Virus record (IMG/VR): IMGVR_UViG_3300037721_000031
Coordinates: 96,001 to 160,000 of that record
Direction: 5' to 3' (one strand)
DNA from: a virus
Lineage: Duplodnaviria; Caudoviricetes
Length of the DNA stretch: 64,000 nucleotides
In this document: piece by piece, positions 13,507 to 30,814 of the stretch
How positions within the stretch are numbered: position 1 is the stretch's first letter
Layout: the number at the start of each line of letters is the position of its first letter
Translations under genes and position numbers: made by a program
The notes under the pieces: model-generated
The model's input: the letters and a program-made list of their open reading frames with translations, nothing else
What the model was told of the DNA's origin: nothing
Database searches by the model: none

Positions 13507-16500
13507 ATGACTACTGTGACTTACCCTTTTGATCCGACGGGGAGTAATCCACTTTCTCGGGTTACTAACGAACAACACGTTCTCACGTCGCTTAACAATA
13601 CAGAACTATATCAGACGGTTATACCGTCAGCAGCACCTTTCTTTACAGATAACGTTATTATCTCGTTTACGAATCCGGATACTTCGATTCGGGTACTGAC
13701 AGAAGGTGTTGATTACTACTTCACACATATTTTTATTTCAGCTGGTAAAGCTACCGCTAAGCCGCTAGCTGGTTCAATTACGTTCCTTGATACCGATATT
13801 ACTGGGGTGCTTCGTGTAACGTACCAGACTATCGGTGGAGCATGGAACCTGGATGATAATGAGATTGCTGAGATTCTCGCTAACCTGATTAAGAATCCTC
13901 GTATCACTGCATGGGAACAAATAACTGACTTACCGTTCCAATTTCCGGTTATCGATCATGAGTGGAATTTATCCGACATGGTTGGTGCTACGGAGATCGT
14001 GGAAGGCATCAACGGTATTCGTGATGCGGTTCTGGCTGGTAATGCAGGCGGTATTGCGGCTCACGTAGGTAACACAAATAATCCTCATGAAACTACTAAG
14101 GCTCAAGTAGGTCTAGGTAGTGTTGAGAATTATCCTATTGCAACACAGACTCAGGCGCAGGTGGGTACTAACAACACGGCTTATATGACGCCGTTACGAG
14201 TAGCTCAAGCCATTAGTGAGTTTGGTGGTGGTGACTTAGCTACACACGTTACGCGTACTGATAATCCTCACGAAGTCACCAAGTCGCAAGTAGGTCTTGG
14301 CAGTGTTGAGAACTATGGTATCGCCAGTACTGGTGAAGCTACGTTAGGTACTTCAGATATTAAGTACATGACTCCGCTGAAGGTTAAGACAGTTGTTGAT
14401 GTAGTCAGCGCTTCTCTTGTATCACATACTGCGAATCAGTCAAATCCTCACAATACGACTAAGAGTCAGATTGGCCTGTTCAATGTTCAAAACTATGATG
14501 TAGCAACAGCAGTAGAGGCTCAAAACGGTACAGTCAACGATAAATACATGACTCCGTTGAGAGTGAAACAAGCTATTACTGCATTGGCATCTGTTGACTT
14601 AACAACTCACTTGATGGATACTGCTAATCCTCATAGTACGACCAAAGCACAAGTAGGTCTGGGCAGCGTCGATAACTTTCAGGTAGCGTCGCAGTTAGAA
14701 GCTGAAGCTGGATTGCTAACTAATCGCTTTATGACTCCCCAGAGAGTAGCGCAAGCGGTTACTGCACAAGTCGGTCAAAGTTTTGTAGATCACTTGAATG
14801 CGACAAATCCCCACGGAGTGACTAAGGATCAAGTAAATCTTGGTAATGTTGATAATTATGTTACTTCTTCACAAGTAGAAGCTGAAGCTGGTGATCTGAA
14901 CACTAGGTTCATGACTCCTTTGCGTACAAAGCAAGCTATCGCAGTTCTCGCTTCTGGAAGTATTGCTTCACATACGTCAGATACTAATAATCCTCACAAT
15001 ACGACTAAGAGTCAGATTGGGCTGGGTAACGTTAGCAATTATCTGACTGCTGATCAAGCTGAAGCTGAAGCTGGTAATGCCACAGATAAGTACATGACCC
15101 CATTGGGTACTTACCAAGCGATATCGTTTCAAGCAGTATCTCCTCTGAATACACACACTGCTGATATAGCTAATCCTCATGCGGTAACTAAATCTCAAGT
15201 AGGTCTAGGTAGTGTTGAGAATTATACAGTAGCTACGCAAGTTGAAGCTCAGGATGGCACTCTTAACGATAAGTACATGACTCCTCTGAGAGTGAAACAA
15301 GCTATTGTAGCTCTTGCATCTGGAGATATTGCGGCGCATACGTTGGATATGGGTAATCCCCATAACACAACCAAAACGCAGGTAGGTTTAGGGCTTGTAG
15401 AGAACTATACTGTAGCTTCACAAGCTGAAGCTGAAGCTGGTAATGCCACAGATAAGTACATGACACCATTACGTACTAATCAGGCAATCGCAACGCTGAT
15501 TAGTGGTACTGTTACAACACACATTAGTGATCATAACAACCCCCACGTAGTGACTAAGGCCCAGGTAGGCCTCGGTAATGTTAGTGATCTTTCTATAGCC
15601 AGTCAGGCGGAAGCTGAAGCAGGTAGCAGTAATGCCGCCTACATGACTCCTTTGCGCACATACCAGGCTATTGCAGTATTAGCATCAGGGAATATTGCTT
15701 CTCACTTGGCAGATACCAATAATCCTCATAGTACTACAAAAACACAGGTAGGTTTAGGTAATGTTGGTAACTTCGCTGTAGCTTCACAAGTTGAAGCTGA
15801 AGCTGGTAATGCCACAGATAAGTACATGACTCCGTTGAGTACTAATCAGGCAATTGCATTACAAGCAGTTACTCCGTTAAATACACACATTGCTGACCAG
15901 AGTAATCCGCATAACACTACAAAGACTCAGGTTGGTCTAGGTAATGTTAGTGATTTCGCTGTAGCTTCTCAGGCCGAAGCAGAAGCAGGTAGTAGCAGTA
16001 CTGTATACATGACGCCTCAGCGCACCGCACAGGCTATTTCGTCTCAGGTAGGATCGACATTATCTACGCACGTTAGTGATACTAATAATCCACACAACAC
16101 TACTGCATCACAGCTCGGTGTATACACAACATCGCAAGTAGACACTGCACTTGCAGGTAAACTTGGAACAGCTGCAACAGCGGCTAATTCCAGCCTGTTG
16201 GAAGGTAAATCTTCAGCAGTACTTTCTAGTGAAATAACACTTGCAGCTATTGCAGCTATAGAAACTTCGTTTGCGCCTCAATTGTTGGCAGCTAAGATGG
16301 ACTTTGACGCAGGTCTTGGTTCATTCTATACTTGGGTTCAATTAGGTGGATTATCTCTAGATGATACGGCTGGTAATGAAAATAGTCCACTGTGCTGGTT
16401 AATTAGTGGAATTGGTTACAATGCAAATGAAGATATAGTCGGACCTAATTATTCATTGAATTCTTATATCCTGACTGCAACTATCGCTGAAAATGCTGAG

Positions 16501-17367
16501 GCTGATGATATTATTGTAAACTCACAGTTGAAGTATTTAACTAGTGGCGGTAATATCGTTGTTGAGTTTAGACAGAAAATTGACGTTGCTTTGAAAGAAG
16601 TCACTTACTACATCAGACTTCCTAATGGTCATTCTCAGTTCTCTATTACAAACCTCAACCCTCACGGTTTCCAAGGTATTGACATTTTAGATGTTGGCGC
16701 TAGTACTCCTGCAAGCACTACAGAACTGTTACCTACAGGCGATGGTGACTTAACTGCTCACACATCAAATACCAGTAATCCTCATTCGACGACTAAAACT
16801 CAGGTGGGGTTAGGGTCTGTAGAAAACTATGCTATCGCCAGTCAAGCAGAAGCTGAGGCAGGTAGTAGTGATGTCAAGTATATGACACCACTTAAGACTG
16901 CACAAGCAATCACTATTCAGGCTGGCGCTGCACTGACTACGCATACTTCGAATACCAGTAATCCGCATAGCACTACAGCTACGCAGGTAGGTCTTGGTAG
17001 TGTTAGTAACTTTGCTGTAGCTTCACAAGCAGAAGCGGTAGCTGGTACAAGTGCTGTTAAATACATGACGCCTCAACGTACGCAACAAGCAATTGATGCG
17101 CAGGTTGGTACTGCCGCTAATACTCACTATAGCGATCAGAATAATCCTCACTTTGTGAATCAGAGTCAGGTTGGATTAGGTAATGTACAAAATTACGGTA
17201 TTGCTAGTCAGGCTCAAGCAGAAGCAGGTAGCGATAATGCCACCTACATGACTCCGTTACGCACAAAGCAAGCCATTACCTTACAGGTGGAAGCTATGCT
17301 GAATACATTACTTACGGAAGTTACAGCTGGCTTTACAGCTATCTCCAACGCAATGGCTTCAGTGTAA
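13507..17367 (+). CDS. Tail fibre protein with 61-aa His-containing repeats
   Basis: N-terminal YPFDPTG anchor domain; 15 NPH units (one partial) with consensus H-x6-NPHxTTKxQVGLGxVxNYxxAxQAEAEAGxxxxxYMTPLRTxQAI; non-repeat insert at ~16110-16750. Confidence 0.8.
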   Translation: MTTVTYPFDPTGSNPLSRVTNEQHVLTSLNNTELYQTVIPSAAPFFTDNVIISFTNPDTSIRVLTEGVDYYFTHIFISAGKATAKPLAGSITFLDTDITGVLRVTYQTIGGAWNLDDNEIAEILANLIKNPRITAWEQITDLPFQFPVIDHEWNLSDMVGATEIVEGINGIRDAVLAGNAGGIAAHVGNTNNPHETTKAQVGLGSVENYPIATQTQAQVGTNNTAYMTPLRVAQAISEFGGGDLATHVTRTDNPHEVTKSQVGLGSVENYGIASTGEATLGTSDIKYMTPLKVKTVVDVVSASLVSHTANQSNPHNTTKSQIGLFNVQNYDVATAVEAQNGTVNDKYMTPLRVKQAITALASVDLTTHLMDTANPHSTTKAQVGLGSVDNFQVASQLEAEAGLLTNRFMTPQRVAQAVTAQVGQSFVDHLNATNPHGVTKDQVNLGNVDNYVTSSQVEAEAGDLNTRFMTPLRTKQAIAVLASGSIASHTSDTNNPHNTTKSQIGLGNVSNYLTADQAEAEAGNATDKYMTPLGTYQAISFQAVSPLNTHTADIANPHAVTKSQVGLGSVENYTVATQVEAQDGTLNDKYMTPLRVKQAIVALASGDIAAHTLDMGNPHNTTKTQVGLGLVENYTVASQAEAEAGNATDKYMTPLRTNQAIATLISGTVTTHISDHNNPHVVTKAQVGLGNVSDLSIASQAEAEAGSSNAAYMTPLRTYQAIAVLASGNIASHLADTNNPHSTTKTQVGLGNVGNFAVASQVEAEAGNATDKYMTPLSTNQAIALQAVTPLNTHIADQSNPHNTTKTQVGLGNVSDFAVASQAEAEAGSSSTVYMTPQRTAQAISSQVGSTLSTHVSDTNNPHNTTASQLGVYTTSQVDTALAGKLGTAATAANSSLLEGKSSAVLSSEITLAAIAAIETSFAPQLLAAKMDFDAGLGSFYTWVQLGGLSLDDTAGNENSPLCWLISGIGYNANEDIVGPNYSLNSYILTATIAENAEADDIIVNSQLKYLTSGGNIVVEFRQKIDVALKEVTYYIRLPNGHSQFSITNLNPHGFQGIDILDVGASTPASTTELLPTGDGDLTAHTSNTSNPHSTTKTQVGLGSVENYAIASQAEAEAGSSDVKYMTPLKTAQAITIQAGAALTTHTSNTSNPHSTTATQVGLGSVSNFAVASQAEAVAGTSAVKYMTPQRTQQAIDAQVGTAANTHYSDQNNPHFVNQSQVGLGNVQNYGIASQAQAEAGSDNATYMTPLRTKQAITLQVEAMLNTLLTEVTAGFTAISNAMASV
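14062..17280 (+). repeat. Intragenic 183-bp (61-aa) degenerate tandem repeats, fibre 1
   Basis: Recurrent AATCCxCAT, CAxGTxGGxxTxGG and TACATGACxCC motifs with heavy synonymous divergence. Confidence 0.85.
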
Positions 17368-17460: not shown

Positions 17461-20013
17461 ATGGCGACCCAGCTACCTCGCTATCCTCTTGACTCCACCG
17501 GTACTAGTCCTGATAACTTGGTAGTCGGTGAACAACATACATTACCTAACAGAACTATACGCGCACTAGCACCTCTGTACGGTGCATTTTTTACAGAATC
17601 TGTTGTGGTAAGGGATAGATCTAATAATCAAGTTCTCCAAAGAAATGTACAATATACCGCAACAGAACTCTATGAATTTCCTACAGGTCGCTGGGGAAAA
17701 GAAATTTGTGGTATCATTTTAATTACTGATGAAGCAGTCAGTAATGAAGTCGAAGTTGACTATCAGGCTCTCGGTGGTGAGTACAGTACCAATGTCGATG
17801 CAATTGTTTCGATGTTTAATGAAGCGATGCTGGAGCGACCTGTATCTTGGCCTAACATCTTAGGTCAACCGGATGATTTTAATCCGGCTGCTCACTTCCA
17901 TGATGTCGGTGACATTTATGGATTCGAATATGTTGTCAATGCTTTAGAGCGGCTTCGTACAGCAGTATTAATTGGTGATGCGGCATCTCACGAAGAGATC
18001 CTGAAATACATAGATAGACAAGATGAAGATATACGTGCAGACACCGCTGTTGTCTCTGGTAATCTAAGTGAACATACTGCAAACGTAAACAATCCTCACA
18101 ATACGACTAAGAGTCAAGTGGGGTTAGGTAGTGTTGAGAACTACCCAATAGCGACAACTACAGAAGCTCAGACAGGTACGGGTAATGCGTACATGACTCC
18201 AGCTCTAGTCAAATTGTCTATCGCGCCAGAGTTAACTCCATTTCAATCACACATTGCTAATACCAGCAACCCTCACAGTACAACAGCTACTCAAGTGGGA
18301 TTAGGTAGTGTACAGAATTACGATGTATCGACTCAAGCTGAAGCTGAAGCCGGTACCAGTAATGTTAAGTACATGACTCCGTTACGCACGTCACAAGCTA
18401 TCACTACACTGGCATTAGGACCTTTAGCAGTACATGCTGGTAGATCAGATAATCCGCACAATACAACAGCTACACAGGTAGGCTTAGGCAGTGTCAGTAA
18501 CTTTGCTGTAGCTACTCAAGCAGAAGCCGAAGCTGGTGCTAGCGGTACTACTTACATGACTCCGGCTCGTACTGCGCAAGCGATTACAGTACAAGCGTTA
18601 GGGCCTCTTAATACACATACTGCTCGTGTAGATAATCCCCATAATACCTCTAAATCTCAAGTAGGTTTAGGTAATGTTAGTAATTATGGTAATGCCGGTA
18701 TTACTGAGGCTCAAGCCGGCACCAGTGACAGTCATTTCATGACTCCGTTGCGTGTATCTCAGGCTATTAGTGCGTTAGCATTAGTACCTCTGAATACTCA
18801 CACTGCTCGTACTGATAATCCACATAGTACGACTAAATCTCAGGTCGGGTTGGGTAGTGTTGATAATTTCGCGACAGCTAGCCAGGCCGAAGCAGAAGCT
18901 GGTGTAAACGCAATTACGTTTATGACACCTCAGCGTACAGCACAGGCTATCTCTTTACAAGCTGTGGCTCCTTTGAATGTGCATACGGCTAGACAAGATA
19001 ATCCTCACAATACGACTAAGAGTCAAGTGGGGTTAGGTAGTGTTGATAATTTCGCGACAGCTACTCAAGCTGAAGCCCAGGCCGGTGCGAGTAATGCAAC
19101 ATTTATGACTCCTTTGCGTACAGCACAGGCTATAAGTGTTCAAGCGGTAGCTCCACTAAATTCCCACATTACTAACACCAGCAATCCTCATAGTACGACT
19201 GCTTCTCAGGTAGGCTTGGGTAGTGTACAGAATTATCCAGTAGCAACACAAATAGAGGCGGAAGGTGGTGTCAGTACTGTAACATATATGACTCCGTTAC
19301 GTACTGCTCAGTTAATAAATGTACAGGCAATTGCTCCTCTGAATACTCACATTGGTCGTACAGATAATCCTCATAGTACGACTAAATCTCAGGTCGGGTT
19401 GGGTAGTGTCAGTAACTTTGATATTGCTACTCAAGCAGAAGCCCAGGCAGGCAGTAGTAATGTTAAGTACATGACTCCGTTGAGTACTGCGCAAGCGATC
19501 TCGACTCAAGCCATAGCTCCGTTAAATACTCATACTGCCAGAACGGATAACCCCCATAGTACGACAGCTACTCAGGTGGGTTTAGGTAATGTTCAAAATC
19601 TTGGTTTAGCAAATACTTCTGAAGCCCAGGCCGGTACAAGTCATGCATTATACATGACACCATTACTTACAGCTCAAGCAATTAGTGCGCAAGCTTTATC
19701 ACCTCTAAATACTCACGTTGCTAGAACTGATAATCCTCACAGTACTACAGCTACGCAGGTAGGTCTTGGTAGTGTGAGTAACTTCGCTGTAGCTTCACAA
19801 GCAGAGTCTGAAGCGGGTAGCAGTAATGCTAAATACATGACTCCGTTAGGTGTGAATCAACGTGTAGCTGTCCACGTTGCTAGTGGTGATCATGACTCAA
19901 GGTACCCGCGATTGAATGCTAACGTATCTGCAGCCGTTCGTGAATCAGGTGGACAATTTCAAGCATTTATTGGTGGAGCTTGGCGTATTGTGTGGCCTCC
20001 TCAGTGGCAATAA
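17461..20013 (+). CDS. Second tail fibre protein (paralog) with 61-aa His repeats
   Basis: N-terminal YPLDSTG anchor, HFH motif, 10 NPH repeat units, short C-terminal tail ending GGAWRIVWPPQWQ. Confidence 0.8.
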   Translation: MATQLPRYPLDSTGTSPDNLVVGEQHTLPNRTIRALAPLYGAFFTESVVVRDRSNNQVLQRNVQYTATELYEFPTGRWGKEICGIILITDEAVSNEVEVDYQALGGEYSTNVDAIVSMFNEAMLERPVSWPNILGQPDDFNPAAHFHDVGDIYGFEYVVNALERLRTAVLIGDAASHEEILKYIDRQDEDIRADTAVVSGNLSEHTANVNNPHNTTKSQVGLGSVENYPIATTTEAQTGTGNAYMTPALVKLSIAPELTPFQSHIANTSNPHSTTATQVGLGSVQNYDVSTQAEAEAGTSNVKYMTPLRTSQAITTLALGPLAVHAGRSDNPHNTTATQVGLGSVSNFAVATQAEAEAGASGTTYMTPARTAQAITVQALGPLNTHTARVDNPHNTSKSQVGLGNVSNYGNAGITEAQAGTSDSHFMTPLRVSQAISALALVPLNTHTARTDNPHSTTKSQVGLGSVDNFATASQAEAEAGVNAITFMTPQRTAQAISLQAVAPLNVHTARQDNPHNTTKSQVGLGSVDNFATATQAEAQAGASNATFMTPLRTAQAISVQAVAPLNSHITNTSNPHSTTASQVGLGSVQNYPVATQIEAEGGVSTVTYMTPLRTAQLINVQAIAPLNTHIGRTDNPHSTTKSQVGLGSVSNFDIATQAEAQAGSSNVKYMTPLSTAQAISTQAIAPLNTHTARTDNPHSTTATQVGLGNVQNLGLANTSEAQAGTSHALYMTPLLTAQAISAQALSPLNTHVARTDNPHSTTATQVGLGSVSNFAVASQAESEAGSSNAKYMTPLGVNQRVAVHVASGDHDSRYPRLNANVSAAVRESGGQFQAFIGGAWRIVWPPQWQ
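18072..19860 (+). repeat. Intragenic 183-bp degenerate tandem repeats, fibre 2
   Basis: Ten units of the same consensus as fibre 1. Confidence 0.85.
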
Positions 20014-20082: not shown

Positions 20083-20595
20083 ATGACACATGTATTTATA
20101 GAGAAAATGAACCTTAATATAGTTAAGGAAGATCTATATATTGACGAGGTTCTTTTCAGTCCTTATACTTATCAGCAAGAACTTATAAAAATAATAGTAT
20201 CTCCAGACATCTGTATTAATGCTTTAAATGTAGCAGATACAGTAAGACACGCTGACAGGACTATCAAGATAGAGGGAATGGAGAAACTATCCAAAGTCCT
20301 CTATCGACTCTGTCGGCAGATTGCCGACAAAATGAGTCATGATGGTCCTGTCACGTGTCACCTTTTTTTATCTCGTTCTGGATCTGAGAGCTTTCCAGCC
20401 CATACAGATCCAGATAATGTTTTGATTTATATAGTTGATGGTGAGAAGACCATAGTGTTAGATAACGAAACAATTACTCTAACCACGGATCAAGCTTTAT
20501 TTATGCCGTATGGTACTAAGCATCAAGCTGTTAATCAAAAAGAATCAATCATGCTAAGTTTTGGCTTAGAACGGTTTATAGTGGAGAAACTCTAA
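20083..20595 (+). CDS. Cupin/JmjC-like Fe(II)/2-oxoglutarate oxygenase
   Basis: SFPAHTDPDNVLIYIVDGEK...ALFMPYGTKHQA gives the HxD...H facial triad and a JmjC-like Lys; GAGGA RBS. Confidence 0.7.
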   Translation: MTHVFIEKMNLNIVKEDLYIDEVLFSPYTYQQELIKIIVSPDICINALNVADTVRHADRTIKIEGMEKLSKVLYRLCRQIADKMSHDGPVTCHLFLSRSGSESFPAHTDPDNVLIYIVDGEKTIVLDNETITLTTDQALFMPYGTKHQAVNQKESIMLSFGLERFIVEKL

Positions 20596-20597
20596 TT

Positions 20598-21683
20598 ATG
20601 ATGCGCACCGTCTACGTCAAGACTACGGAATCATGTAATCTTGATTGCAAACATTGCTTTACTGGTGGTAATCGACCTCCTCGTACGTTTTTAGATTTAG
20701 CTAAGACTGAGGATTGGATATCTCGCTTTGCTAACTACATATCTCCTGAAGATGATGTGCATTTTGAGTTACATGGAGGAGAACCGTTTCTTGCTCCTGT
20801 AAGTACTCTGAAATCTATTGTAACTACAATACGAGCTACTGGTTTAAAACATATGTCTATTGGAGCTACTACTAATCTAGTATATAAACTCAAAGATGAT
20901 TTGTTAGATTTTATAGTTAATGATTTAGATGCAATTGGTACAAGCTGGGATGCAGGTATTCGTTTCGCTAATGAAAAGCAAGAAGAGTTATGGCGTAAGA
21001 ATCTTCAAACACTAACAGATAAGAACATAAAAGTTGTACTGAATATTAGTGTCTCTCGCGCTGTTGTCGAAATGGATTGCGAAAAATTAATTACATTTAT
21101 TAGAGATACTAAATGTTATAAAGTCTTATTTGACCGTATAACACTTAATGGCAACGCTAATAATCATTTAAAATTATTTCCATCTAATGCTGAAATAAAT
21201 GACTGGTATTTGCGCATGCATGAGGCAACTACTAGACTAGATGCTCGTAAATGGTTTCATAATTCCATGCTAGAAGATGTTTACGCCAAGTTCGAGAATT
21301 CATTCTCAGCATGCGGTACATTCTGCAGAGATTGTGAAGAACGAAATATCACTCTAAATGCAAATGGTTCTATTGGTGGTTGTCCAAATTCTGCTCCTGA
21401 AGAGTTCTTTGGTCACATCGATATGGATATTGCAGAAATGTTCGGTACATCTAAAAGAATAGATGTAATGGTGAAAGAGCGCACACGTAACGATCACTGT
21501 TATACTTGTCCTGTCTTCAGTTACTGTGGATCAGATTGTCATCGTTTGGCGTGGGATGGTGATGTATGTGCTTCACCGAGGCGGTTAATGATGCGGTTAG
21601 CAGGCGTAGATGACTCTCTAGAACAACGACCGGCGACTACCACTCGTGTGTATAAAAACATTATTCCAATCTTTTCATCTTAA
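20598..21683 (+). CDS. Radical SAM/SPASM protein 1
   Basis: CNLDCKHC (CxxxCxxC), HGGEPF, SPASM Cys: CRDC...GCP...CYTCPVFSYCGSDC...C. Confidence 0.9.
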   Translation: MMRTVYVKTTESCNLDCKHCFTGGNRPPRTFLDLAKTEDWISRFANYISPEDDVHFELHGGEPFLAPVSTLKSIVTTIRATGLKHMSIGATTNLVYKLKDDLLDFIVNDLDAIGTSWDAGIRFANEKQEELWRKNLQTLTDKNIKVVLNISVSRAVVEMDCEKLITFIRDTKCYKVLFDRITLNGNANNHLKLFPSNAEINDWYLRMHEATTRLDARKWFHNSMLEDVYAKFENSFSACGTFCRDCEERNITLNANGSIGGCPNSAPEEFFGHIDMDIAEMFGTSKRIDVMVKERTRNDHCYTCPVFSYCGSDCHRLAWDGDVCASPRRLMMRLAGVDDSLEQRPATTTRVYKNIIPIFSS

Positions 21684-21698
21684 ATTTGAGAATTAAAT

Positions 21699-22274
21699 AT
21701 GCCAGATATTCTTAAAAGTAATGTACAGACCGATGCATATTCGGCTATTGTTGATAACATAAATAGTGTTGCAACCGACTATGGTCCTGCACCTATTGGG
21801 TCAGAACGCGGTTTGTCGTATTGTAATACTGCGATGTTGGAGTATTACAGTTTTGATCCCTCTGAGGCATGGCTTGCTAGCTATTTAAGTGGAAGCATTA
21901 CCCGTAGTGGACTCGTTGCTAGAGTAGGTATACTAGGTGGTTGGTACGCCCGTACTACTTGGGCAATACACGGTTTGACTGGTACTACATCTAGTGGTGC
22001 TTGGGATGGTTTTACTGTTCCATTTAGTGAACTTGATATTTTCTTTGTAAAGCCAGAATATCATCAAAGTCATTATGATGCCACGATAGCGGCTATTGCA
22101 GCTGCCGATACATCTGAATTATTTAATGACATTACTAGAACTGCAGTCGTCTCTTACTTAGTTAGAATTAAAAATGTTGTGCTTAATAATGCCACAACTG
22201 GTGATGTTGTAGATCTAAGAGTATGTCATAGCTCGTGTCACTCTAACTGTCACGGTTCGCGTGGTCGTCGCTAA
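21699..22274 (+). CDS. Putative rSAM substrate protein with C-terminal (CHxx)3-RGRR motif
   Basis: C-terminus CHSSCHSNCHGSRGRR (22224-22271); lies between rSAM genes. Confidence 0.65.
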   Translation: MPDILKSNVQTDAYSAIVDNINSVATDYGPAPIGSERGLSYCNTAMLEYYSFDPSEAWLASYLSGSITRSGLVARVGILGGWYARTTWAIHGLTGTTSSGAWDGFTVPFSELDIFFVKPEYHQSHYDATIAAIAAADTSELFNDITRTAVVSYLVRIKNVVLNNATTGDVVDLRVCHSSCHSNCHGSRGRR

Positions 22275-22287
22275 AATAGGTAATAAC

Positions 22288-23355
22288 ATGAAAAATCTTA
22301 TTAACCGTGTTTACATTAAGCACGACAACAATATAACACCAAGTAGCTATCAGTCAAGAATAATTGTTACTGATCGTGAAATGAGATATCCTATTTCAGA
22401 AGAGAGAGAAGTGCTTGATAAGGTGTTTATTAAACACTATGTTAAGTCTCTTGATGAACTGGATACACTGTATGGCGATAGAGAAGGGTTTTGGTCGGCG
22501 ATGCTTCTCTCTACTGAGAAACTGCTGATTATTGCTTCTCCGGCATTTACAGCTGAATTACTAATCCAGTACTGGAAGTCTGTCTTTAAGGATCCGAGTA
22601 GGTCCTTTATTAAGCTAATGTACGATTTGTTTACAGCACAGGAAAATCTACTCGGTTGCCGTGAAAAAGAAAGACAAATATCTAAAGAAGATGTTAACGT
22701 TATTGACAGAAAGTGTGTACCTGTTAGTGATGATTTGTTTAATGCTTTATTTGATAAAGTAGAACATTCGCAGATTGTCTCCGAAGCTCCAGTGACCAAG
22801 TTACCTTTCGAATACCTGCTGATTGGTCACCTGACTAAATCTGGTGGAAAGGGTTTAAATACTGAGTTCTATCGGCGTGCATCAAGTATTGTGCTGTTAA
22901 ACATTGTAAGGGCTATTGTTAATGCTAAAGAAGATTTCTTTAGTGAGACACATAACTACTACTTACTCGATGACGAAACTAGTCTTGGTGAATTGCGTAC
23001 AAATCCGATAGGATATCTTTCTAAGCACAAACGTTTAGCTTGGGTAGTTGATGAAGAGTTTGTATACGGTAATGAGGATGTCATCCTCAAAAAGTATTCT
23101 TTAGATAAGCTTAAAGATATTTTTAAAGTTTATACCACACTCTTTAAGTTTGAATATGATGAAGAGAAAGCTCTTGATTTCATCATAGCCAAAGATTATG
23201 CTGGTATGATTAGATATGATATTGCTGATCAAAAGGGTAATTTCTTTGGCGCAGATAGTTTCACAGCCAAAATAAACGGATTACTTATATCTCACCTTTA
23301 CGAGCTAGTTCGTAATAGTAAGGCTCAAGAATTGGATTGCTTTTCATTGAAGTAA
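22288..23355 (+). CDS. Unknown rSAM-cluster partner protein A
   Basis: ORF track 22261..23355; ATG 22288 with AGGT upstream preferred. No recognisable motif. Confidence 0.6.
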   Translation: MKNLINRVYIKHDNNITPSSYQSRIIVTDREMRYPISEEREVLDKVFIKHYVKSLDELDTLYGDREGFWSAMLLSTEKLLIIASPAFTAELLIQYWKSVFKDPSRSFIKLMYDLFTAQENLLGCREKERQISKEDVNVIDRKCVPVSDDLFNALFDKVEHSQIVSEAPVTKLPFEYLLIGHLTKSGGKGLNTEFYRRASSIVLLNIVRAIVNAKEDFFSETHNYYLLDDETSLGELRTNPIGYLSKHKRLAWVVDEEFVYGNEDVILKKYSLDKLKDIFKVYTTLFKFEYDEEKALDFIIAKDYAGMIRYDIADQKGNFFGADSFTAKINGLLISHLYELVRNSKAQELDCFSLK

Positions 23356-23357
23356 CT

Positions 23358-24455
23358 ATGTTCGACAAAAGTAACGTTGTGATTTTTGTAAGAGTTGTGC
23401 AAGGTTGTAATCTTAACTGCACACACTGCTTCACTCTTGGGAACCAAGATAAGGTATTGACAACACCTTTCGAATATATCGATCAGTTTCTTACATCAAT
23501 TAAGAAAAATGTCGATCCACGTCGAGGTGTTGTCTATTTACATGGTGGCGAGACATTCTTAGCTAAGTTATCATATCTTCGCAAAGTAACACAAAGAGCA
23601 CGAGAATTGTTCTCAGAAAAAGACTTTAAGATTATTCCACAGACTAACCTTGTTTATAAGCTTACTGATGACTTTCTAGATTTTATCCGCACAGAGTGTA
23701 ACGGGCATATTGGCGTATCTTGGGATGCCAAGATACGCTTTGGGTCAATTAAGACGGAACATCAAGAACGTCAAGAAGCAATGTATTTTCGTAATTTAAA
23801 AACATTACTAGATAATGGCTTTAAAGTGCATATTACAATTACAGCACAAAGACACTTACTAAACGTTAATCCATTGAACATAGCTAAGATGTTTGCAGGA
23901 GTAGCTTCAATAGACTTTGAACATCTAACAACATTCGATGAGAAGACTAGGGATTTACGTGTTAACTTACTGAAGTGGTCTAATTGGTTAGATAAGCTAG
24001 TTGATTATTATCAGCATAATGACGTAAGCTGGTGCCTGCCTCAGGTTGATCTTTTTACAAAGTCTATTGAGGATGGAGAAATTTATGCTTGTAAATGTAA
24101 CTGCTGTGATAGAAAAACGTTTACTCTAAATCCAAACGGCACTACTGGGTTTTGTCCGGACAATTCTTACATCTCACCTATATCTCATGTAAAAGAGATG
24201 ACTGAATCTTGGTCTACGTATGAAGAGAAAGCTCATAACGCTCACATTGAGCGATTAGCTACTTTGAGTACAGAGAACTGCTATACTTGTGAACATTATG
24301 CTGAGTGTGGCGGTAACTGTGAAGATACTTTCTTTGATGATTCTGGTGAATGTCCATTATCTAAGAAGGTGATCTCACGTATCAAGGAAAACAAGGTAAC
24401 ATTCATTAAATTACTTAATGAGCGTTCGAGTAAGAATTTAGCCGAAATGCAATAA
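23358..24455 (+). CDS. Radical SAM/SPASM protein 2
   Basis: CNLNCTHC, HGGETF, CKCNCC...GFCP...CYTCEHYAECGGNC...C. ATG 23358 preferred over 23337. Confidence 0.9.
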   Translation: MFDKSNVVIFVRVVQGCNLNCTHCFTLGNQDKVLTTPFEYIDQFLTSIKKNVDPRRGVVYLHGGETFLAKLSYLRKVTQRARELFSEKDFKIIPQTNLVYKLTDDFLDFIRTECNGHIGVSWDAKIRFGSIKTEHQERQEAMYFRNLKTLLDNGFKVHITITAQRHLLNVNPLNIAKMFAGVASIDFEHLTTFDEKTRDLRVNLLKWSNWLDKLVDYYQHNDVSWCLPQVDLFTKSIEDGEIYACKCNCCDRKTFTLNPNGTTGFCPDNSYISPISHVKEMTESWSTYEEKAHNAHIERLATLSTENCYTCEHYAECGGNCEDTFFDDSGECPLSKKVISRIKENKVTFIKLLNERSSKNLAEMQ

Positions 24456-24467
24456 AAGGAATCTGAC

Positions 24468-25307
24468 GTGTCTGACGAAACAACTCAACAACCAGCTAGC
24501 GACGTACCTGTAGTTCCAGAATACCGTGAGGTAACTGCACCTATTGGTACTGAATTTATTAGAGAATTCTTTAAGAATAAGAATATTACATTCCTAGTAA
24601 ATCACTCTCAGTCTAGGTTAAAGGGAGCAGTGTTCCTTACGTACTTGGCTAACTTAGCAGTGCCATCAGATATTAGGTTTGACCAACCCTTATCTGAAGA
24701 CGAGTATGTAACTATCATGAGTGCATACCTGGTACAGCGCACGATTAGTAAAGCTAAGACGTTACAGCTGATGATGGCGCAGGTAATTCTCTGGGCTAAA
24801 GGATTGAGCTTCGACAAGATTCCGTATAAGACTGGTGTACCAGAGAGCCACGTCTTAGCATTTGCTAAGAAGAACGGTCCAACTATCATGAGGTGGTTGC
24901 ACTTTGTTGACTCATCTCATGTCTTCGCAATGTCATCTATCGAAGCACTGAAAAAGGAACATGATCCTTTACAGCATGGCGTTAGCGTCATTGATGATAA
25001 AGAGTATATTGGTCATAACGCAGTATTACTCTACGATGTACCGCTCTTTACAGAGTTCTACTTCTCTATTCCTAATGCAGGTTATCGTTCTTCGTATTTT
25101 GTACGACAGTATGAGGACTACATGTTCGGTAATGAGAAGTTCGCAAAGTTCTTTGCTGTAAAGAATAACTTTTTAGCAAACATATACGAAGGTGTAGCCT
25201 CAGGCTATATTGATCTGAATAAGCCAGAAGAGTGTATGCTACTTGAAGGAAATAATGATGTCGGAAGTATCGCAACTGACAGTACCGAAACACCTCAAAA
25301 CGGATAA
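24468..25307 (+). CDS. Unknown rSAM-cluster partner protein B
   Basis: 279-aa ORF, GTG start with AAGGA RBS; overlaps the next rSAM gene. Confidence 0.6.
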   Translation: MSDETTQQPASDVPVVPEYREVTAPIGTEFIREFFKNKNITFLVNHSQSRLKGAVFLTYLANLAVPSDIRFDQPLSEDEYVTIMSAYLVQRTISKAKTLQLMMAQVILWAKGLSFDKIPYKTGVPESHVLAFAKKNGPTIMRWLHFVDSSHVFAMSSIEALKKEHDPLQHGVSVIDDKEYIGHNAVLLYDVPLFTEFYFSIPNAGYRSSYFVRQYEDYMFGNEKFAKFFAVKNNFLANIYEGVASGYIDLNKPEECMLLEGNNDVGSIATDSTETPQNG

Positions 25308-26394
25308 CTTCCTGACTTCTGTAGAGCGCGAAAGCGCCACTGGTTATCATCTCAGCTTAAACCTGGAATTACTACGCGGATGCCAGTTTAGCTGTAAGGG
25401 TTGTTTCGTAGATAAGTATGGTTCAGATCCAATGACTGACGAGCGAGGTGCGCAGCTTCTATCTTGGGTTACCAGTGCGCAAGAAGATGGTGGTTATCTA
25501 CCTACGGTAATATTTATCGGACCTACTGACTTCTTATCCTCTGGGAATACCATCGACGTACTGCGAGATCCACGTATTCAGCAAGTTGTCAGACGTTTTA
25601 AAAGACTATCTCTACAAACTACTTGTTTAGATATCAGTACAGCTCCAGAGATTGCTAAAGTGTTACGTGAACACTACAGTCATATGGAACTCGAGGTTAA
25701 CTTCTTAATGGAGCCAGAGCATGTTCTAACAGAGAAGTACCTTCGTACTGTTAAAGAGAATAGAGACAGTCTGTATGAGATAATTGACTGGCACATTCCC
25801 GTAAAAAGCTTCTGTATTATGAACGTCTATGAATACGAGAATGCAAAGAAAGATGACGTCATTAAGCTATTAAATGACTACAAAGAAATGCATTTGCGTA
25901 TCAAGGATATGTTTGATACTACAATTGACTTTAACTTCTCGATGTCAAGAAAACACAATCAAAACAAGTCATCCGAAGTTAAAGAAGCAATCATCAGAGT
26001 AACTAAGATGTTTGATAAAAGTGTTAATCACGATACATCTCAGTTTATTCGTTTCTCGTTTGGAAAATTAACTGATAGTCTGATCGAGAAACATTTTAAC
26101 TTTCTTAATGGTAAGTTTTACGTGTCACCATTACTTTACGATCGTTATGTAGCTTTTGTGCCAGAGTTGCAAATACCGTTTGTAAACTTTACTGTAGCTG
26201 AGTCTGAAGCATTTGAAGAACAGCTACAGCTAGAGCAATATCAGAATGCCGGCCAAAAAGACGAATGTGGTAGTTGTCGTTATCTTGGGTCGTGTACGGA
26301 TAGAAATATTCTTAAAGTTATGGATATCTATTCTATCAAGCACTGCATCATAGCGCGAGACGCCTTGGACAGTATTAACGTACGGCCAAATTAA
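25255..26394 (+). CDS. Radical SAM protein 3 (GPTD subtype)
   Basis: GCQFSCKGC; IGPTDFLS in place of GGEP; C-terminal CGSCRYLGSC...HC. ATG 25255 or 25258 after GAAGGA. Confidence 0.8.
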   Translation: MMSEVSQLTVPKHLKTDNFLTSVERESATGYHLSLNLELLRGCQFSCKGCFVDKYGSDPMTDERGAQLLSWVTSAQEDGGYLPTVIFIGPTDFLSSGNTIDVLRDPRIQQVVRRFKRLSLQTTCLDISTAPEIAKVLREHYSHMELEVNFLMEPEHVLTEKYLRTVKENRDSLYEIIDWHIPVKSFCIMNVYEYENAKKDDVIKLLNDYKEMHLRIKDMFDTTIDFNFSMSRKHNQNKSSEVKEAIIRVTKMFDKSVNHDTSQFIRFSFGKLTDSLIEKHFNFLNGKFYVSPLLYDRYVAFVPELQIPFVNFTVAESEAFEEQLQLEQYQNAGQKDECGSCRYLGSCTDRNILKVMDIYSIKHCIIARDALDSINVRPN

Positions 26395-26469: not shown

Positions 26470-27531
26470 ATGCAAAATGCTGAAGAACAGTTACTTAAAC
26501 AGTTACTCGCTTCCAAAGTACAAGATTCCTCAGAAATAGAACACCATTTATTCGAATTGTGCAATCTTAATTGCTCCTTCTGCGGACAGGATCATGATTC
26601 GAAAGAAGGTATTGATACAATCTTAGAGAAAGCTCATCAGACTGTGGAGTTCATGCGTAACTCTCCATTGAAGAGCCATACAGTCAATGTGATGGGTGGC
26701 GAGATCTTTAATGATTTGGTACCAGATTCTGTATTTGATGACTATTATGCTTTTTATAAAGTTATTAATGACTATGCAGTTTCAAACGACCTTACAGTTA
26801 GAATTAACTTTGTAACCAATTTAATATTTTCTAAGAATACTTCTAGTGTTCAGAAATTACTTGAGATATGTGGTGACAATGTTTGGATTTCTACGTCTTA
26901 CGACTTTGCTGGTAGGGGGCTTGATATAAATCGCATGATGATGTTCAAACGTAATCTAGAGATCTTTAAGCCTCGTATCGGAGTAGTTGGTTTTGTACTG
27001 GCTAAGCCATCTATTCGTAAGTTGATTGCTGATAAAGATAAGTTCTTTAAAGAAGTTCTATACGCTAACTACCCGTTGTACTTTGATTGGTATGTACCTG
27101 AAAATAGTGCAGATAAGATGATGCCTTCAGAGCAAGAGATGCTTGACGGTCTTCTATTCGTTGCTGATCGTTATCCTAAGATAGAGCCAGTTAGAAGCAT
27201 GTTAGAAAATGAAGAAAATAAGATGACATGCTTTTCACTTAATAAGACAACTATCTTACCAGATGGTCGTGAAGTTAAGTGTAGGTATATGGAGTATGAA
27301 GCTGAACAGTTTGAGACTCCAATCGATTATTCTACTAATAGTGGAATCATCAATGCGCATCTCGAACGTAATGAATGTTTTAGTTGCGAGTGGTATAAAA
27401 GGTGTCCATTAGTATGCTTCGTACAATCAGACTGGACAAAAAGAGAAAGACTACCTGTCTGTTTTATGAAAACATTCTTTAACACAGCAGTCGGAAAAAA
27501 TAATGCCACCAACGATACAGATGAAAGATAA
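26470..27531 (+). CDS. Radical SAM/SPASM protein 4
   Basis: CNLNCSFC, MGGEIF, C-terminal CFSCEWYKRCPLVC...C. Confidence 0.88.
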   Translation: MQNAEEQLLKQLLASKVQDSSEIEHHLFELCNLNCSFCGQDHDSKEGIDTILEKAHQTVEFMRNSPLKSHTVNVMGGEIFNDLVPDSVFDDYYAFYKVINDYAVSNDLTVRINFVTNLIFSKNTSSVQKLLEICGDNVWISTSYDFAGRGLDINRMMMFKRNLEIFKPRIGVVGFVLAKPSIRKLIADKDKFFKEVLYANYPLYFDWYVPENSADKMMPSEQEMLDGLLFVADRYPKIEPVRSMLENEENKMTCFSLNKTTILPDGREVKCRYMEYEAEQFETPIDYSTNSGIINAHLERNECFSCEWYKRCPLVCFVQSDWTKRERLPVCFMKTFFNTAVGKNNATNDTDER

Positions 27532-28270
27532 AAGATTCGGTAGATTAACAGTTATTGATAATGGTACAAGGTTACCTAACCGTACTCGTGTTTATGAGTG
27601 TCTATGTGAGTGCGGAGTTGTTAAAAAAGTAGACGGTGGTAATCTGAGGCATGGAGTAATAAAAAGTTGCGGATGCTTACGTCGTGAGATTGTTAGTCAA
27701 AGCAATAACAATCTCACTCACGGGATGCGCTATACACCGGAATATCAAGCTTGGATTAACATGCGTAGACGATGTGATGCGGGTCCAGATACGAGGGAGT
27801 ATGCGTATTACGGTGCTAAAGGGATTACTGTTTGCGAAAGATGGCTGAACAGCTTCGAAGCTTTTTATGAAGATATGGGTCCTAGACCATCGCCAGACCA
27901 TTCTATCGATAGAAGAGAAAATGATAAAGGCTACTACAAAAATAATTGTAGATGGGCTACCTGGGAAGAGCAGCAGAATAACAGAAGTAATAATTCAGTT
28001 AATACTGTTGATGGAGTTGTATATTCCTCTATTGCAAAGCTGGCTCGTGAAAAAAATATATCAGAAGCTACTGTAAAAGCAAGAATCTATAAACAAAATA
28101 TGTCTGTAGAAGAAGCTGTTTCTAAAGGAACAAATCGCTATTCACTTATGGTAAACGGTGAAAGTAAATCTGTTAATGAGTTAAGTGAAATAACAAATAA
28201 AACATCTGCTACAATTCGATATCATCTTAGAAGAGGTAGGACTGTAGAAGACATACTTAAAGATAGGTAG
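27503..28270 (+). mobile_element. Free-standing HNH homing endonuclease gene
   Basis: FGRLTVI...YECLCECG...KSCGC...HGM..TPEY.AW.NMRRRC...YG.KGITVC.RW..FEAFY.DMG.RP....SIDR..ND.GY...NCRWAT..EQ.NN, plus C-terminal HTH-like repeats; overlaps the rSAM4 3' end by 29 nt. Confidence 0.85.
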
Positions 28271-28387
28271 CTTAGATGTTTCGTGAATGCAGATTGGACA
28301 AAGCTAGAGAGACTACCAACTTGCTTTTTAAAGACATTTTTTAATGAAACAGTTGGAAAGAAGAATCATGTTCAGACGACTACTTGA
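28271..28387 (+). pseudogene. Displaced original 3' end of rSAM4
   Basis: Translates LRCFVNADWTKLERLPTCFLKTFFNETVGKKNHVQTTT*, 23/32 aa identical to the rSAM4 C-terminus encoded from 27409. No start codon. Confidence 0.85.
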
Positions 28388-28526
28388 TGTGTTTATGAAA
28401 GTTACCGGTAATAGTCAATATGGCTGGTGGGCTAAGTATTTATGGGAGGATAAATATGTTTGGTCAGCCACTAAAGAGGCAGCTATACTTGGCTGTCGTC
28501 AAAGAGCAATGGAGAGTAAGAAATGA
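28368..28526 (+). CDS. Small hypothetical protein
   Basis: ORF track 28344..28526; in-frame ATG 28368 after GGAAAG preferred; ATGA-type overlap with the next gene. Confidence 0.45.
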   Translation: MFRRLLDVFMKVTGNSQYGWWAKYLWEDKYVWSATKEAAILGCRQRAMESKK

Positions 28527-28849
28527 TTAAAACATTTACTCTGTTCTTTATAACTGCTTACTTTGAGATTCTTGGCTGTTACTCAGTATTGCAATATGTC
28601 AAAACATTTCGGCAAAGTGGCTCCTCTGCCATAGCTCTTATTACTGCAATTATATCTCTCAGTATATTTGCGTGGCTACTTACATTACACCCAACAGAAT
28701 CTGGGAGAGTGTATGCTGCTTATGGCGGCGTATATGTACTTACATCTCTTTTATGGTTGTGGCTTATTGATGGAGTTCATCCGACTGTATCGGATATCTC
28801 AGGAGTAGTGTTAATATTACTAGGCTCACTATTGATAATGAAGCAATAA
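28523..28849 (+). CDS. ynfA: YnfA/UPF0060 family small membrane protein (SMR-like)
   Basis: AYFEILGCY...FAWLLTLHPTESGRVYAAYGGVYVLTSLLWLWLIDG..PT..DISG; four TM helices, 108 aa. Confidence 0.85.
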   Translation: MIKTFTLFFITAYFEILGCYSVLQYVKTFRQSGSSAIALITAIISLSIFAWLLTLHPTESGRVYAAYGGVYVLTSLLWLWLIDGVHPTVSDISGVVLILLGSLLIMKQ

Positions 28850-28867
28850 CCTCTCTGGAGAACTATC

Positions 28868-29113
28868 TTGACTTTTGAAGAACTGTTAGAATTGCGTAGA
28901 ACACAAGGTCCAGAAGCTGCAAATGAAGTTTTAAAGACAATGTCTCTAGAACAGATGAGGGACATTACCATTGAAGCTAATAAACAAATTATAAATTTGG
29001 CTAACTTATTTGTTGCGACTTATATGGATTATGCTGTTGAAGCGAACCTACCATCTGCACAAAAAGCAAAACAAGATGTAGATTTTCTCATTAAAAAGGT
29101 AAATGGGAAATGA
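28868..29113 (+). CDS. Hypothetical protein
   Basis: 81-aa ORF, GGAG RBS, ATGA overlap with the NUDIX gene. Confidence 0.5.
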   Translation: MTFEELLELRRTQGPEAANEVLKTMSLEQMRDITIEANKQIINLANLFVATYMDYAVEANLPSAQKAKQDVDFLIKKVNGK

Positions 29114-29553
29114 AGTACGTCGTAGGTCTTTTATTCAGTAAGAAATTGGATCAAGTTCTACTTTTAAAAAAGGTAAAAGGTCCAGAAGGCGTTGTAGGTA
29201 AGTGGAACGGTCATGGTGGTAAAATTGAGCCAACGGAATATGCACTAGATGCTATTGTAAGAGAAACAATTGAAGAGACTGGATTAGTTATACCTGCAAA
29301 AGACTGGTTACTATTTCATCACTTTATTCGAGCCGATGGTAATGAAGTTTATTTCTATACATCTACTATACCAGATAGTCAAACGTACAGTCAGATAGAA
29401 GAAGAAACTATTGAACTAAAATATGTTAATGATGTCATACTGTCTTTTCTTGGAGACGGTAGTTTAAACAATCCACATGTTTATAACTTGTCATACCTTA
29501 TTCCGATGGCGTTGTCTTATTGTAAGTTTCCACAGTTTCGTTACGCTGAGTAA
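29110..29553 (+). CDS. NUDIX hydrolase (MutT-like)
   Basis: Exact Nudix box G-KIEPT-E-YALDAIV-RETIEETGL. Confidence 0.88.
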   Translation: MKYVVGLLFSKKLDQVLLLKKVKGPEGVVGKWNGHGGKIEPTEYALDAIVRETIEETGLVIPAKDWLLFHHFIRADGNEVYFYTSTIPDSQTYSQIEEETIELKYVNDVILSFLGDGSLNNPHVYNLSYLIPMALSYCKFPQFRYAE

Positions 29554-29737: not shown

Positions 29738-30814
29738 ATGGATCTCATCCTGAAACCAACTTCCGCTTGCAATTTTCGCTGCACGTTTTGCAGTTCAACA
29801 GTTTTAAGTGAAAATGATTCGGATGTACTGGATCTATCTTACGTACGAGAGTTTCTCGTACGTTTCCCAAATACACGAACCATCATAGTCAATGGTGGTG
29901 ATCCGCTAATGATGAGACCAGAGTACTATTGGGAGATTATCAGTATACTTGAAGAACTGGGGCTGAAAGATACCACGATATCACTTACAACTAATCTATG
30001 GGCATTCTACAAAAAGCCTGAGATGTGGCAGGATCTTTTCAAACATCCTCAAGTTGGAGTAGCAACAAGTTTCCAGTATGGTAATGCACGCTTGAAAGGT
30101 GACTATAAGCCTTATACAGAAGAAGAGTTCTGGAAAGTATCTGATTTGTTTTTAGAACGTATTGGATACAGGCCTAGTTTCATTGCGGTCATTACAAAAG
30201 AAAACGAAGACTCAGCAATACAGACTGTTGAATTGGCTAAGAAGATGGGTGTAGTGTGTAAGGTCAATTATGCAGTAGCTTCTGGCCCTAAGAAAACCAC
30301 ATTCAAAGGTATCACAATTGGTAATGCTGGTAGTACGTATGTGCTGTCTGACATTTACGAAATGTATATCAAGATCCATGAAGCAGGATTGACGCAGTGG
30401 GAACATAACACTTCACAAATGGCTGTACGTTTGCGTGGTGAGAACACTACATGCCCACAAGCTCGTGATTGCGACAGCGCTATTAGAACTTTACAGCCTG
30501 GAGGTAAATACTACTCCTGTGGGGCTTTTGGTGATGATGGTCTGTACCCCATCGACTTTAAAAAAGAAATGACTGGAGAGCTCGCTAGGCCCCTGCAAAC
30601 GCATGAGCTAATGTCATTGAAAACTGCGTGCTTCGAATGCCCGATGTTTGATATCTGTAATGGGTGTAGGAAAACTACTCACGATTTGAAGACACTAGGT
30701 TTAGTAGAAACACATTGCAAGAAAATGAAGACTCTTGCATCCAAGATCATTGAGATCAACGGTATGTCTGATGTGCTTAAACCTACTCCTTACATTAAGG
30801 AATATGAAGAATGA
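29738..30814 (+). CDS. Radical SAM/SPASM protein 5
   Basis: CNFRCTFC, NGGDPL, CPQARDC...YSCG...CFECPMFDICNGC...C. Confidence 0.9.
   Translation: MDLILKPTSACNFRCTFCSSTVLSENDSDVLDLSYVREFLVRFPNTRTIIVNGGDPLMMRPEYYWEIISILEELGLKDTTISLTTNLWAFYKKPEMWQDLFKHPQVGVATSFQYGNARLKGDYKPYTEEEFWKVSDLFLERIGYRPSFIAVITKENEDSAIQTVELAKKMGVVCKVNYAVASGPKKTTFKGITIGNAGSTYVLSDIYEMYIKIHEAGLTQWEHNTSQMAVRLRGENTTCPQARDCDSAIRTLQPGGKYYSCGAFGDDGLYPIDFKKEMTGELARPLQTHELMSLKTACFECPMFDICNGCRKTTHDLKTLGLVETHCKKMKTLASKIIEINGMSDVLKPTPYIKEYEE

Follow-up and report, generated by a model that had tools for sequence, protein, structure and literature searches.

A phage protein with a conserved Cys-His-x-Ser repeat tail as a candidate substrate of the radical SAM enzymes encoded beside it

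Why would a virus carry a long row of radical SAM (rSAM) genes, and what would their products act on? The question is raised by a 64,000-nucleotide stretch of DNA (hereinafter, the window) that covers bases 96001–160000 of a 266,566-bp virus record from a sediment metagenome and encodes eight rSAM proteins (rSAM1 to rSAM8) together with a 191-amino acid protein, here denoted T. The T gene (21699..22274, + strand) starts with ATG and its translation ends in CHSSCHSNCHGSRGRR. Residues 1–175 (21699..22223, +) form a compact alpha/beta domain, hereafter the body, that is nearly free of Cys and His and matches phrog_35144 (9.5e-12). Residues 176–191 (22224..22274 including the stop, +) form the tail, i.e. 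three C-H-x-S units followed by RGRR, and are the proposed modification site. The coding part of the tail spans nucleotides 22224–22271, with the stop codon at 22272–22274 and the translation ending in ...VDLRVCHSSCHSNCHGSRGRR before it; the C-terminal peptide of T is ...VCHSSCHSNCHGSR. The first-pass annotation, made from the sequence of the window, had pointed to a Cys-poor protein that directly follows rSAM1 and ends in three Cys-His units and RGRR. The open reading frame, the translation and the 15-nt gap between the rSAM1 stop and the T start all agree with that description, and the body contains a single Cys besides those of the tail. The next gene downstream most likely starts at the ATG at 22288, 14 nt past the T stop, so that the DNA coding for the tail is free of other reading frames. 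A search of the 64-kb window in all six frames retrieves CH..CH..CH a single time.

The genes around T, from fib1 through p143, all lie on one strand (+), and a scan for promoters and terminators found no excess within this run, which is consistent with one operon. The run is headed by two paralogous genes of the repeat-rich tail-fibre type, fib1 (1286 amino acids; 13507..17367) and fib2 (850 amino acids; 17461..20013), both matching the tail or virion structural families phrog_2163, phrog_13857 and phrog_11029. The cassette proper opens, as in other phages, with a putative oxygenase of the cupin/JmjC-like type (170 amino acids; 20083..20595; Pfam Cupin_2 1.6e-9, JmjC_2 5.3e-7), followed by the rSAM/SPASM protein rSAM1 (20598..21683), which carries the CX3CX2C motif and the SPASM cysteines and lies directly 5' of T. 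Downstream of T come p364 (phrog_36207; 22288..23355), a partner protein, then the rSAM/SPASM protein rSAM2 (23337..24455; matched by Pfam and by the NCBIfam models anSME, 1.2e-10, YhhB and DynA), p279 (phrog_20767; 24468..25307), the divergent ‘GPTD'-type rSAM3 (25243..26394; phrog_31457 at 1e-114, weak Pfam Radical_SAM match) and rSAM4 (phrog_1802; 26470..27531; Pfam match, CX3CX2C). Genes for an HTH protein, YnfA and a Nudix protein (27503–29553) separate rSAM4 from rSAM5 (29738–30814), which is followed by rSAM6 (30811–31866), rSAM7 (31914–33032), p161 (33053–33538), rSAM8 (33546–34505) and p143 (34502–34933), p161 and p143 belonging to the distal half of the cluster; rSAM5 to rSAM8 all contain CX3CX2C and match Pfam. 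The HTH protein, a 255-amino acid product of 27503–28270 between rSAM4 and YnfA/Nudix with a weak C-terminal match to Sigma70_r4_2 or HTH_5, recurs at just one other locus and thus looks like an insertion into the cassette.

The AlphaFold2 (AF2) model of T, built from a 40-sequence alignment, has a pLDDT of 84.2 and a pTM of 0.80, with the tail (pLDDT about 50) exposed as a low-confidence extension of a confident body and a short helix drawn at residues 178–184. No relative of T was detected among solved structures (best E 0.9 in the Foldseek search of the PDB; best Z 4.6 in the wide VIA-align search), matches in the AFDB clusters and BFVD were limited to uncharacterised phage proteins, and the comparison with the Atlas gave no TM above 0.37. 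The profiles of T, p279 and p364 retrieved nothing below E 0.3 from the PDB sequences, and T has neither a Pfam domain nor an NCBIfam match at E<=0.01. Among 128 unique T proteins, none has a signal peptide or an N-terminal hydrophobic or membrane segment; their bodies contain 0–1 Cys and a median of one His. PADLOC leaves T unmatched and reports for the cassette only a generic viperin-like rSAM similarity. The strings CHGSRGRR and CHSSCHS did not occur in published papers in a literature search, and the T orthologs of cultured carriers are annotated as ‘hypothetical protein'.

The tail is the most conserved part of an otherwise highly divergent protein. The median pairwise identity among 129 unique T proteins is 18% in the body vs 88% in the tail. 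All 58 homologs from a word-seeded search, a sample that favours proteins with the common tail, end in C-H-x-x-C-H-x-x-C-H-x-x-RGRR. Three samples with less bias toward the tail were drawn from synteny, from viral contigs and from an index-free profile search. In the first of these directions, the protein at the T position in the Ralstonia phage RsoM3USA, located through DNA similarity of the rSAM genes, ends in CHSSCHTSCHGSRGRR. The locus sample, which comprises 71 IMG/VR loci and 6 others (77 in all), yielded 88 tail-bearing ORFs of 120–318 amino acids. The profile search, in which HMMER read 1.84 billion representatives, expanded the T family to 786 representative clusters at E<=1e-3 (479 at E<=1e-10); C-H-x-[S/N] units are present in all 140 new members inspected, 138 of which have at least three (3–6), whereas RGRR closes only 90 of the 140, most others ending in R-x-R-R and six terminating just past the last CHGS. 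The motif is far beyond chance, being present C-terminally in all family members examined. Conservation of the motif in homologs, on which the first-pass annotation had staked its reading, thus holds across the word-seeded set, the 88 tail ORFs and the profile-search members; the 16-residue ‘core' that it delimited survives as a conserved terminal element, to be redefined as a C-H-x-S repeat of 3–6 units with RGRR as a frequent ending.

Within the units, Cys and His are invariant at each tail position and the fourth residue is Ser or Asn (entropy 0.1–0.9 bits), whereas the third residue is variable (about 2 bits), with the exception of the last unit, where it is Gly in 73 of 76 sequences. The fixed positions that are not potential ligands are Ser179, Ser/Asn183, Gly186 and Ser187. 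A single substitution was seen at any tail His, a Tyr, likewise aromatic, in place of the second His (L077:5419-6051, CHSSCYYDCHGSRGRR). At every conserved residue, several synonymous codons are in use, and for Ser and Arg these come from both codon families, which places selection at the level of the peptide.

The family also includes less regular members. Some tails have four to six C-H-x-S units or lack the basic R-x-R-R (P0164, P0190 and P0191). A 453-amino acid relative (P0115) has a Pfam Gly_rich_2 domain fused to T. In one marine lineage (L069:4872-6240), a T-like N-terminus and a long Gly-rich stretch are both found in a 308-amino acid ORF, and the T that follows it, 140 amino acids in length, lacks this N-terminus; this might reflect a split or frameshifted gene.

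The association of T with rSAM genes is without exception in the sample. At least one rSAM gene lies beside T in the fetched flanks of all 77 loci, although the shared synteny of homologous cassettes means that these are not independent observations; no T homolog devoid of an rSAM neighbour, another finding that the first-pass annotation would have taken against itself, was encountered among them. An rSAM gene immediately precedes 53 of the T ORFs. Loci with a single T are usually arranged as fibre, cupin, SPASM-type rSAM, T, p279, p364 and further rSAMs, with the SPASM-type rSAM present in 64 of 65 such loci, p279 in 62, p364 in 56 and cupin in 55; over all 77 loci, p279 is found in 74, and p364 and cupin in 56 each, so that p279 accompanies T more faithfully than any single rSAM type. 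The remaining arrangement, seen in 12 loci, consists of two tandem small T paralogs (about 124 and 127 amino acids) directly 3' of a fibre of 1100–1900 amino acids, followed by p279 and GPTD-type rSAM genes; cupin and SPASM-type genes appear farther downstream in one of the 12. The rSAM type that adjoins T therefore varies by lineage, SPASM-type with single T and GPTD-type with tandem small T, and no single enzyme can be named as the modifier of T. Each of the tandem small T proteins (L024:5689-6446, L026, L028-L030, L032-L034, L038, L040, L049 and L071) has its own CH-repeat tail, the second unit of which is often C-H-Y-S. At the locus L086, a member with six repeats lies near replication genes, between an rSAM gene and a gene of the size of p279, and there is no fibre gene nearby. 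Among the proteins that are conserved across all loci, none but T carries a repeat motif.

Cultured carriers of T are Chiangmaivirus jumbo phages of Ralstonia and Burkholderia. A T gene is carried by the cultured phages RSL2, RSF1, FLC6, SURPRISE13 and RsoM3USA. A tblastn search of cultured phages with T and with a small T found nothing, and the Chiangmaivirus group was recovered only with the Ralstonia T (P0059) as the query. Published papers on jumbo phages list the cupin and rSAM genes merely as of ‘unknown function'.

The rSAM proteins next to T resemble peptide maturases. The rSAM1 orthologs retain C13, C17 and C20 of the CX3CX2C motif along with eight invariant C-terminal cysteines of the SPASM region (C243, C246, C262, C301, C304, C310, C314 and C324), and rSAM1 scores 28.1 bits against the SPASM model TIGR04085 (cut-off 27). 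The best NCBIfam models of rSAM1 and rSAM2 all describe peptide or protein maturases, namely DynA (2e-15 for rSAM1), YhhB, anSME, PapB and FxsB, with anSME as the top match of rSAM2 and anSME 4K36 as the closest full-length solved relative of rSAM1. The NCBIfam scores fall 5–10 fold under the curated cut-offs and therefore, by sequence, rSAM1 and rSAM2 are placed outside every described family. For the complex of rSAM1 and T, a single unpaired prediction that included SAM and three 4Fe-4S clusters reached 0.26 (mark, 0.34), a value that speaks neither for binding nor against it.

The two constant partners are likewise without described relatives in the searches performed. The p279 model (AF2) has a pLDDT of 84.6; the best PDB match in Foldseek has E 0.1, the AFDB search returns the family itself only, and VIA reaches a best Z of 4.6, with a partial, non-significant likeness to rSAM barrels. 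For p279 and p364, the ESM Atlas feature search retrieved unnamed clusters only. The possibility that p279 and p364 are degenerate rSAM proteins was considered and rejected, as hhalign shows no relation to the rSAM1 family.

T is not confined to viruses. In a scan of cellular genomes, one per prokaryote species, T was found in five metagenome-assembled genomes, all from Bacteriovoracaceae/Bdellovibrionota. The 247-kb contig that harbors the T island is plainly chromosomal. The island, about 13 kb in length (G001:C13:115581-128361; L078-L080), has a GC content of 0.34 vs 0.38 in the flanks; it is bordered by NrdR, NusB and YceI on one side and by SHMT (glyA) on the other, with aldehyde dehydrogenase, an MFS transporter, the 2-oxoacid dehydrogenase E1 and a sulfatase encoded nearby. 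Its genes follow the order rSAM1-like, an extra rSAM, T (211 amino acids), p364, rSAM2, p279, rSAM3, two unknown genes, rSAM4, rSAM5, rSAM8, p143 and a 499-amino acid protein. The rSAM2 ortholog is 48% identical to that of the window (1e-119), the rSAM4 ortholog matches at 1e-113, and rSAM5, rSAM8 and p143 of the window also have orthologs in the island. No cupin or fibre gene was found in the island; hence the module is self-contained and does not need a tail fibre.

In phages, the cassette typically follows a fibre or appendage gene. In 45 loci, the upstream protein (366–1916 amino acids) ends in a common domain of about 140 amino acids that was identified as the Peptidase_G2 intramolecular-chaperone autocleavage domain, PF11962 (28.0 and 26.8 bits, cut-off 25). 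Examples of this domain among the loci L009-L075 are L031:3548-3985 and L068:2925-3383. The window and the Chiangmaivirus group have the fib1/fib2 type, the fibres of the window lack the PF11962 domain, and fib2 orthologs lie 5' of the cassette in L001, L006, L008 and L014. The fibre type thus differs between lineages, whereas T and its tail are constant. The location behind fibre genes suggests that, in phages, T may function at the tail fibre or during entry.

The Ralstonia phage RP31 contains a different rSAM block (AP017925: 79172-86742, L085), with a 537-amino acid rSAM protein and anSME-like, MoaA-like and MgoB-like proteins. The block is preceded by a 125-amino acid ORF that has no Cys and a His/Tyr-rich end, ...RSHTHYSPDGSY, and is not a T homolog. 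RP31 has no T, and none of the proteins of this block is in the published phiRP31 virion table; given the different block and the lack of T, this table is uninformative on T.

Among the described systems, the closest in probable working, judging from the comparison of sequences and gene content, are HXS and the triceptide pathways, and the T cassette belongs to neither. HXS, an antiphage system whose effector was first reported in 2026, consists of HxsA with His-Xaa-Ser repeats, the rSAM proteins HxsB and HxsC, and HxsD; HxsA is a folded 214-amino acid protein, the repeats of which are matured by HxsB/HxsC, with both His and Ser being essential (PMC13128918). Like HxsA, T is a folded protein of about 200 amino acids that carries tandem H-x-S in a basic context and is encoded with rSAMs and a small or unknown partner; its H-S-S, H-S-N and H-G-S make up a tandem H-x-[S/N], with Cys before each His. 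This Cys before every His is a difference from HXS, as is the position of the repeats at the extreme C-terminus. Furthermore, HxsA is exported, N-terminally processed and endowed with a peptidoglycan-binding domain, whereas T has neither a signal peptide nor such a domain and is unmatched by the NCBIfam model of the HxsA family or by PADLOC. Against the HxsB model TIGR03978 (cut-off 370), rSAM1 and rSAM4 score only 30.4 and 16.9 bits, respectively. The T cassette has five to eight rSAM genes, two constant partners and another gene order, and it is mainly phage-borne, in contrast to HXS, which is 99.7% Pseudomonadota chromosomal.

The triceptide synthases join His-C2 to X3-C-beta in aromatic-X-X motifs (PMC11499958). 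The resemblance of T to the substrates of these 3-CyFEs (YhhB, HaaB and HtkB) lies in a repeated aromatic-X-X with a free middle and a constrained third position, where His is accepted as the aromatic residue; in T, X2 has an entropy of about 2 bits and X3 of 0.1–0.9 bits. The maturases are of the SPASM type in both cases, with the YhhB, FxsB and GrrM/OscB models among the best matches of rSAM1 and rSAM2, but the scores for YhhB (45 bits), FxsB (40.6), GrrM/OscB (23.3) and AmcB (19.6) are far from the respective cut-offs of 445, 370, 310 and 425. The cross-link in these pathways joins an aromatic residue to C-beta at -2 Da per motif. The precursors differ as well: T is folded, in contrast to a leader-core peptide, and triceptides have nothing equivalent to the invariant Cys of the unit. 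The T cassette also contains several paralogous rSAM genes where a triceptide pathway has one. The SCIFF/ranthipeptides (PapB, CteB) and the ‘Cys-every-fifth' system CefA/CefB share with T the regular Cys in a C-terminal core beside an rSAM/SPASM gene, along with weak model matches (PapB 1e-11, CefB 2.8e-4) that stay an order of magnitude short of the cut-offs. In T, however, Cys comes at every fourth residue with an obligatory His, the ranthipeptide precursor is about 45 amino acids long compared with the folded 191 amino acids of T, and the PapB model yields 44.7 bits (cut-off 340). The anaerobic sulfatase-maturating enzymes (anSME), which generate formylglycine at C/S-x-P/A-x-R sites of sulfatase-fold substrates and are represented by 4K36, the nearest full-length solved relative of rSAM1, act on a folded protein, and the last unit of T, C-H-[G/A]-S-R, resembles C-x-[P/A]-x-R. 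Where this site has Pro or Ala, however, 73 of 76 T sequences have Gly; a sulfatase domain is absent from T, and the TIGR03942 scores are 41–45 bits (cut-off 349). To the Fe-S scaffolds and carriers (IscU, NifU, A-type carriers and Nfu), T shows no Pfam, NCBIfam or structural match.

The reading that best accounts for these observations is that the rSAM enzymes of the cassette act on T as their dedicated protein substrate, with each C-H-x-S unit a modification site; a probability of about 0.55 seems appropriate. This is suggested by the obligate coupling of T, under deep divergence and in two kinds of genome, to rSAM/SPASM proteins that resemble peptide maturases; by the repeat nature of the motif and its variable copy number; by the contrast between the divergent body and the conserved tail in the sole protein conserved across all loci that bears a repeat motif; by the free-middle, fixed-third pattern after an aromatic residue, as in the aromatic-X-X sites of triceptides (PMC11499958); and by the case of HxsA, in which a folded HxS-repeat protein is served by two rSAM enzymes, with His and Ser essential (PMC13128918). 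According to this model, the folded, Cys/His-poor body of about 175 residues would display, exposed at the C-terminus, a row of C-H-x-S units that numbers three in the T of the window and up to six in relatives and is usually closed by the basic R-x-R-R. One or more of the co-encoded rSAMs, together with p279 and p364 and, in phages, the cupin oxygenase, would covalently modify the units. The candidate chemistry is a His-to-Ser/Asn C-beta cyclophane of the triceptide type and/or a Cys thioether or Cys oxidation, and the modified product would remain on the body, making T a modified protein. The conservation of the non-ligand residues and the multitude of paralogous enzymes would both follow if each of several enzymes had to recognise this one short tail. 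The notion of a candidate substrate, put forward in the first-pass annotation, comes out as likely, with the conserved motif, the universal rSAM neighbours and their SPASM-type, maturase-like character behind it; the corollary drawn there from the long body, that modified T remains a protein instead of releasing a peptide, is in line with both the confident AF2 model and the HxsA precedent (PMC13128918). The thioether or His cross-links, the hydroxylation and the metal- or receptor-binding knot envisaged there are conjectural.

Against the substrate reading, the Cys/His tail might serve in unmodified form as a ligand for Zn, Fe, Cu or an Fe-S cluster. The rSAMs, moreover, all score below the curated family thresholds, and what they act on could instead be small molecules or the fibres. 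Cys and His are classic metal ligands, and the main rival, itself not very probable, holds that the tail works as such, either in a metallochaperone or Fe-S carrier/scaffold that supplies the rSAMs or as a Zn, Fe or Cu structural tail of a fibre-associated protein, with the rSAMs acting elsewhere. The geometry is suitable, in that an i, i+4 spacing of 3–6 Cys-His pairs would bring them all to the same side of a helix, such as that drawn by AF2 at residues 178–184, on a body nearly devoid of other Cys and His; metal-binding C-terminal tails also vary in repeat number, as T does. Up to eight Fe-S enzymes per cassette would create a large demand for clusters, and rSAM-rich marine phages have been reported to encode Fe-S assembly genes (PMC5332604). 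A set of ligands, however, does not require the fixed Ser179, Ser/Asn183, Gly186 and Ser187, the sole substitution of a tail His is Tyr, it is not obvious what R-x-R-R would do in metal delivery, and T matches no Pfam or NCBIfam family, be it of the NifU/IscU/IscA/Nfu type or any other.

The two further alternatives both appear improbable. PqqA and MftA are precursors of cofactors with a fixed product structure, and T might by analogy be a precursor with a long leader, the modified C-terminal peptide of which would be cleaved off to yield a free small RiPP or redox cofactor (PQQ- or mycofactocin-like), leaving the body as a recognition element only. An invariant terminal core and maturation by rSAM/SPASM enzymes are indeed shared with such precursors, and the module of the bacterial chromosome does without fibre genes, but a repeat number that ranges from 3 to 6 argues against one defined small product, the conserved, well-folded T of 120–318 amino acids is much larger than known leaders, and neither the cassette of the window nor the bacterial island has a recognisable peptidase or exporter gene. 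Alternatively, the rSAMs could modify tail fibres or a small molecule, with T being a fibre assembly factor or distal adhesin of the gp38/Tfa type, the tail of which only docks. The position of the cassette directly 3' of a fibre or appendage gene in most phage loci, of the PF11962 type in 45 and of the fib1/fib2 type in the window, is compatible with this scenario, as is the fusion of one T family member to Gly_rich_2; it is at odds with the variation of the fibre types among lineages that share T and its tail, and with the bacterial island and L086, where T and rSAMs occur without a nearby fibre gene.

A broader view, possible yet tentative, is that T represents a new, widespread class of virus-encoded, rSAM-matured proteins, in which up to eight paralogous rSAMs and two partners would introduce dense cross-links into the (Cys-His-x-Ser)n tail and so build a C-terminal structure that might bind metal or DNA. 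Such a structure could be used at the cell envelope by phages and a lineage of predatory bacteria, as a fibre-mounted entry device or as a counterpart of, or counter-measure to, HXS-type blocks on DNA entry.

To our knowledge, the T cassettes are the largest batteries of rSAM genes in phages, and very few examples have been characterised in which rSAM enzymes mature whole proteins as opposed to short peptides. The T-type system has not been previously described; it is a large, deeply conserved and uncharacterised family of 786 clusters that extends across uncultured phages, Chiangmaivirus jumbo phages and Bacteriovoracaceae chromosomes. The existence of cultured hosts makes the question of T directly testable in the jumbo phages of Ralstonia and Burkholderia. 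The chemistry of the tail could reveal new rSAM reactions on Cys/His/Ser units, and T could explain the numerous rSAM genes in many phages and show how a modified protein contributes to infection or predation.
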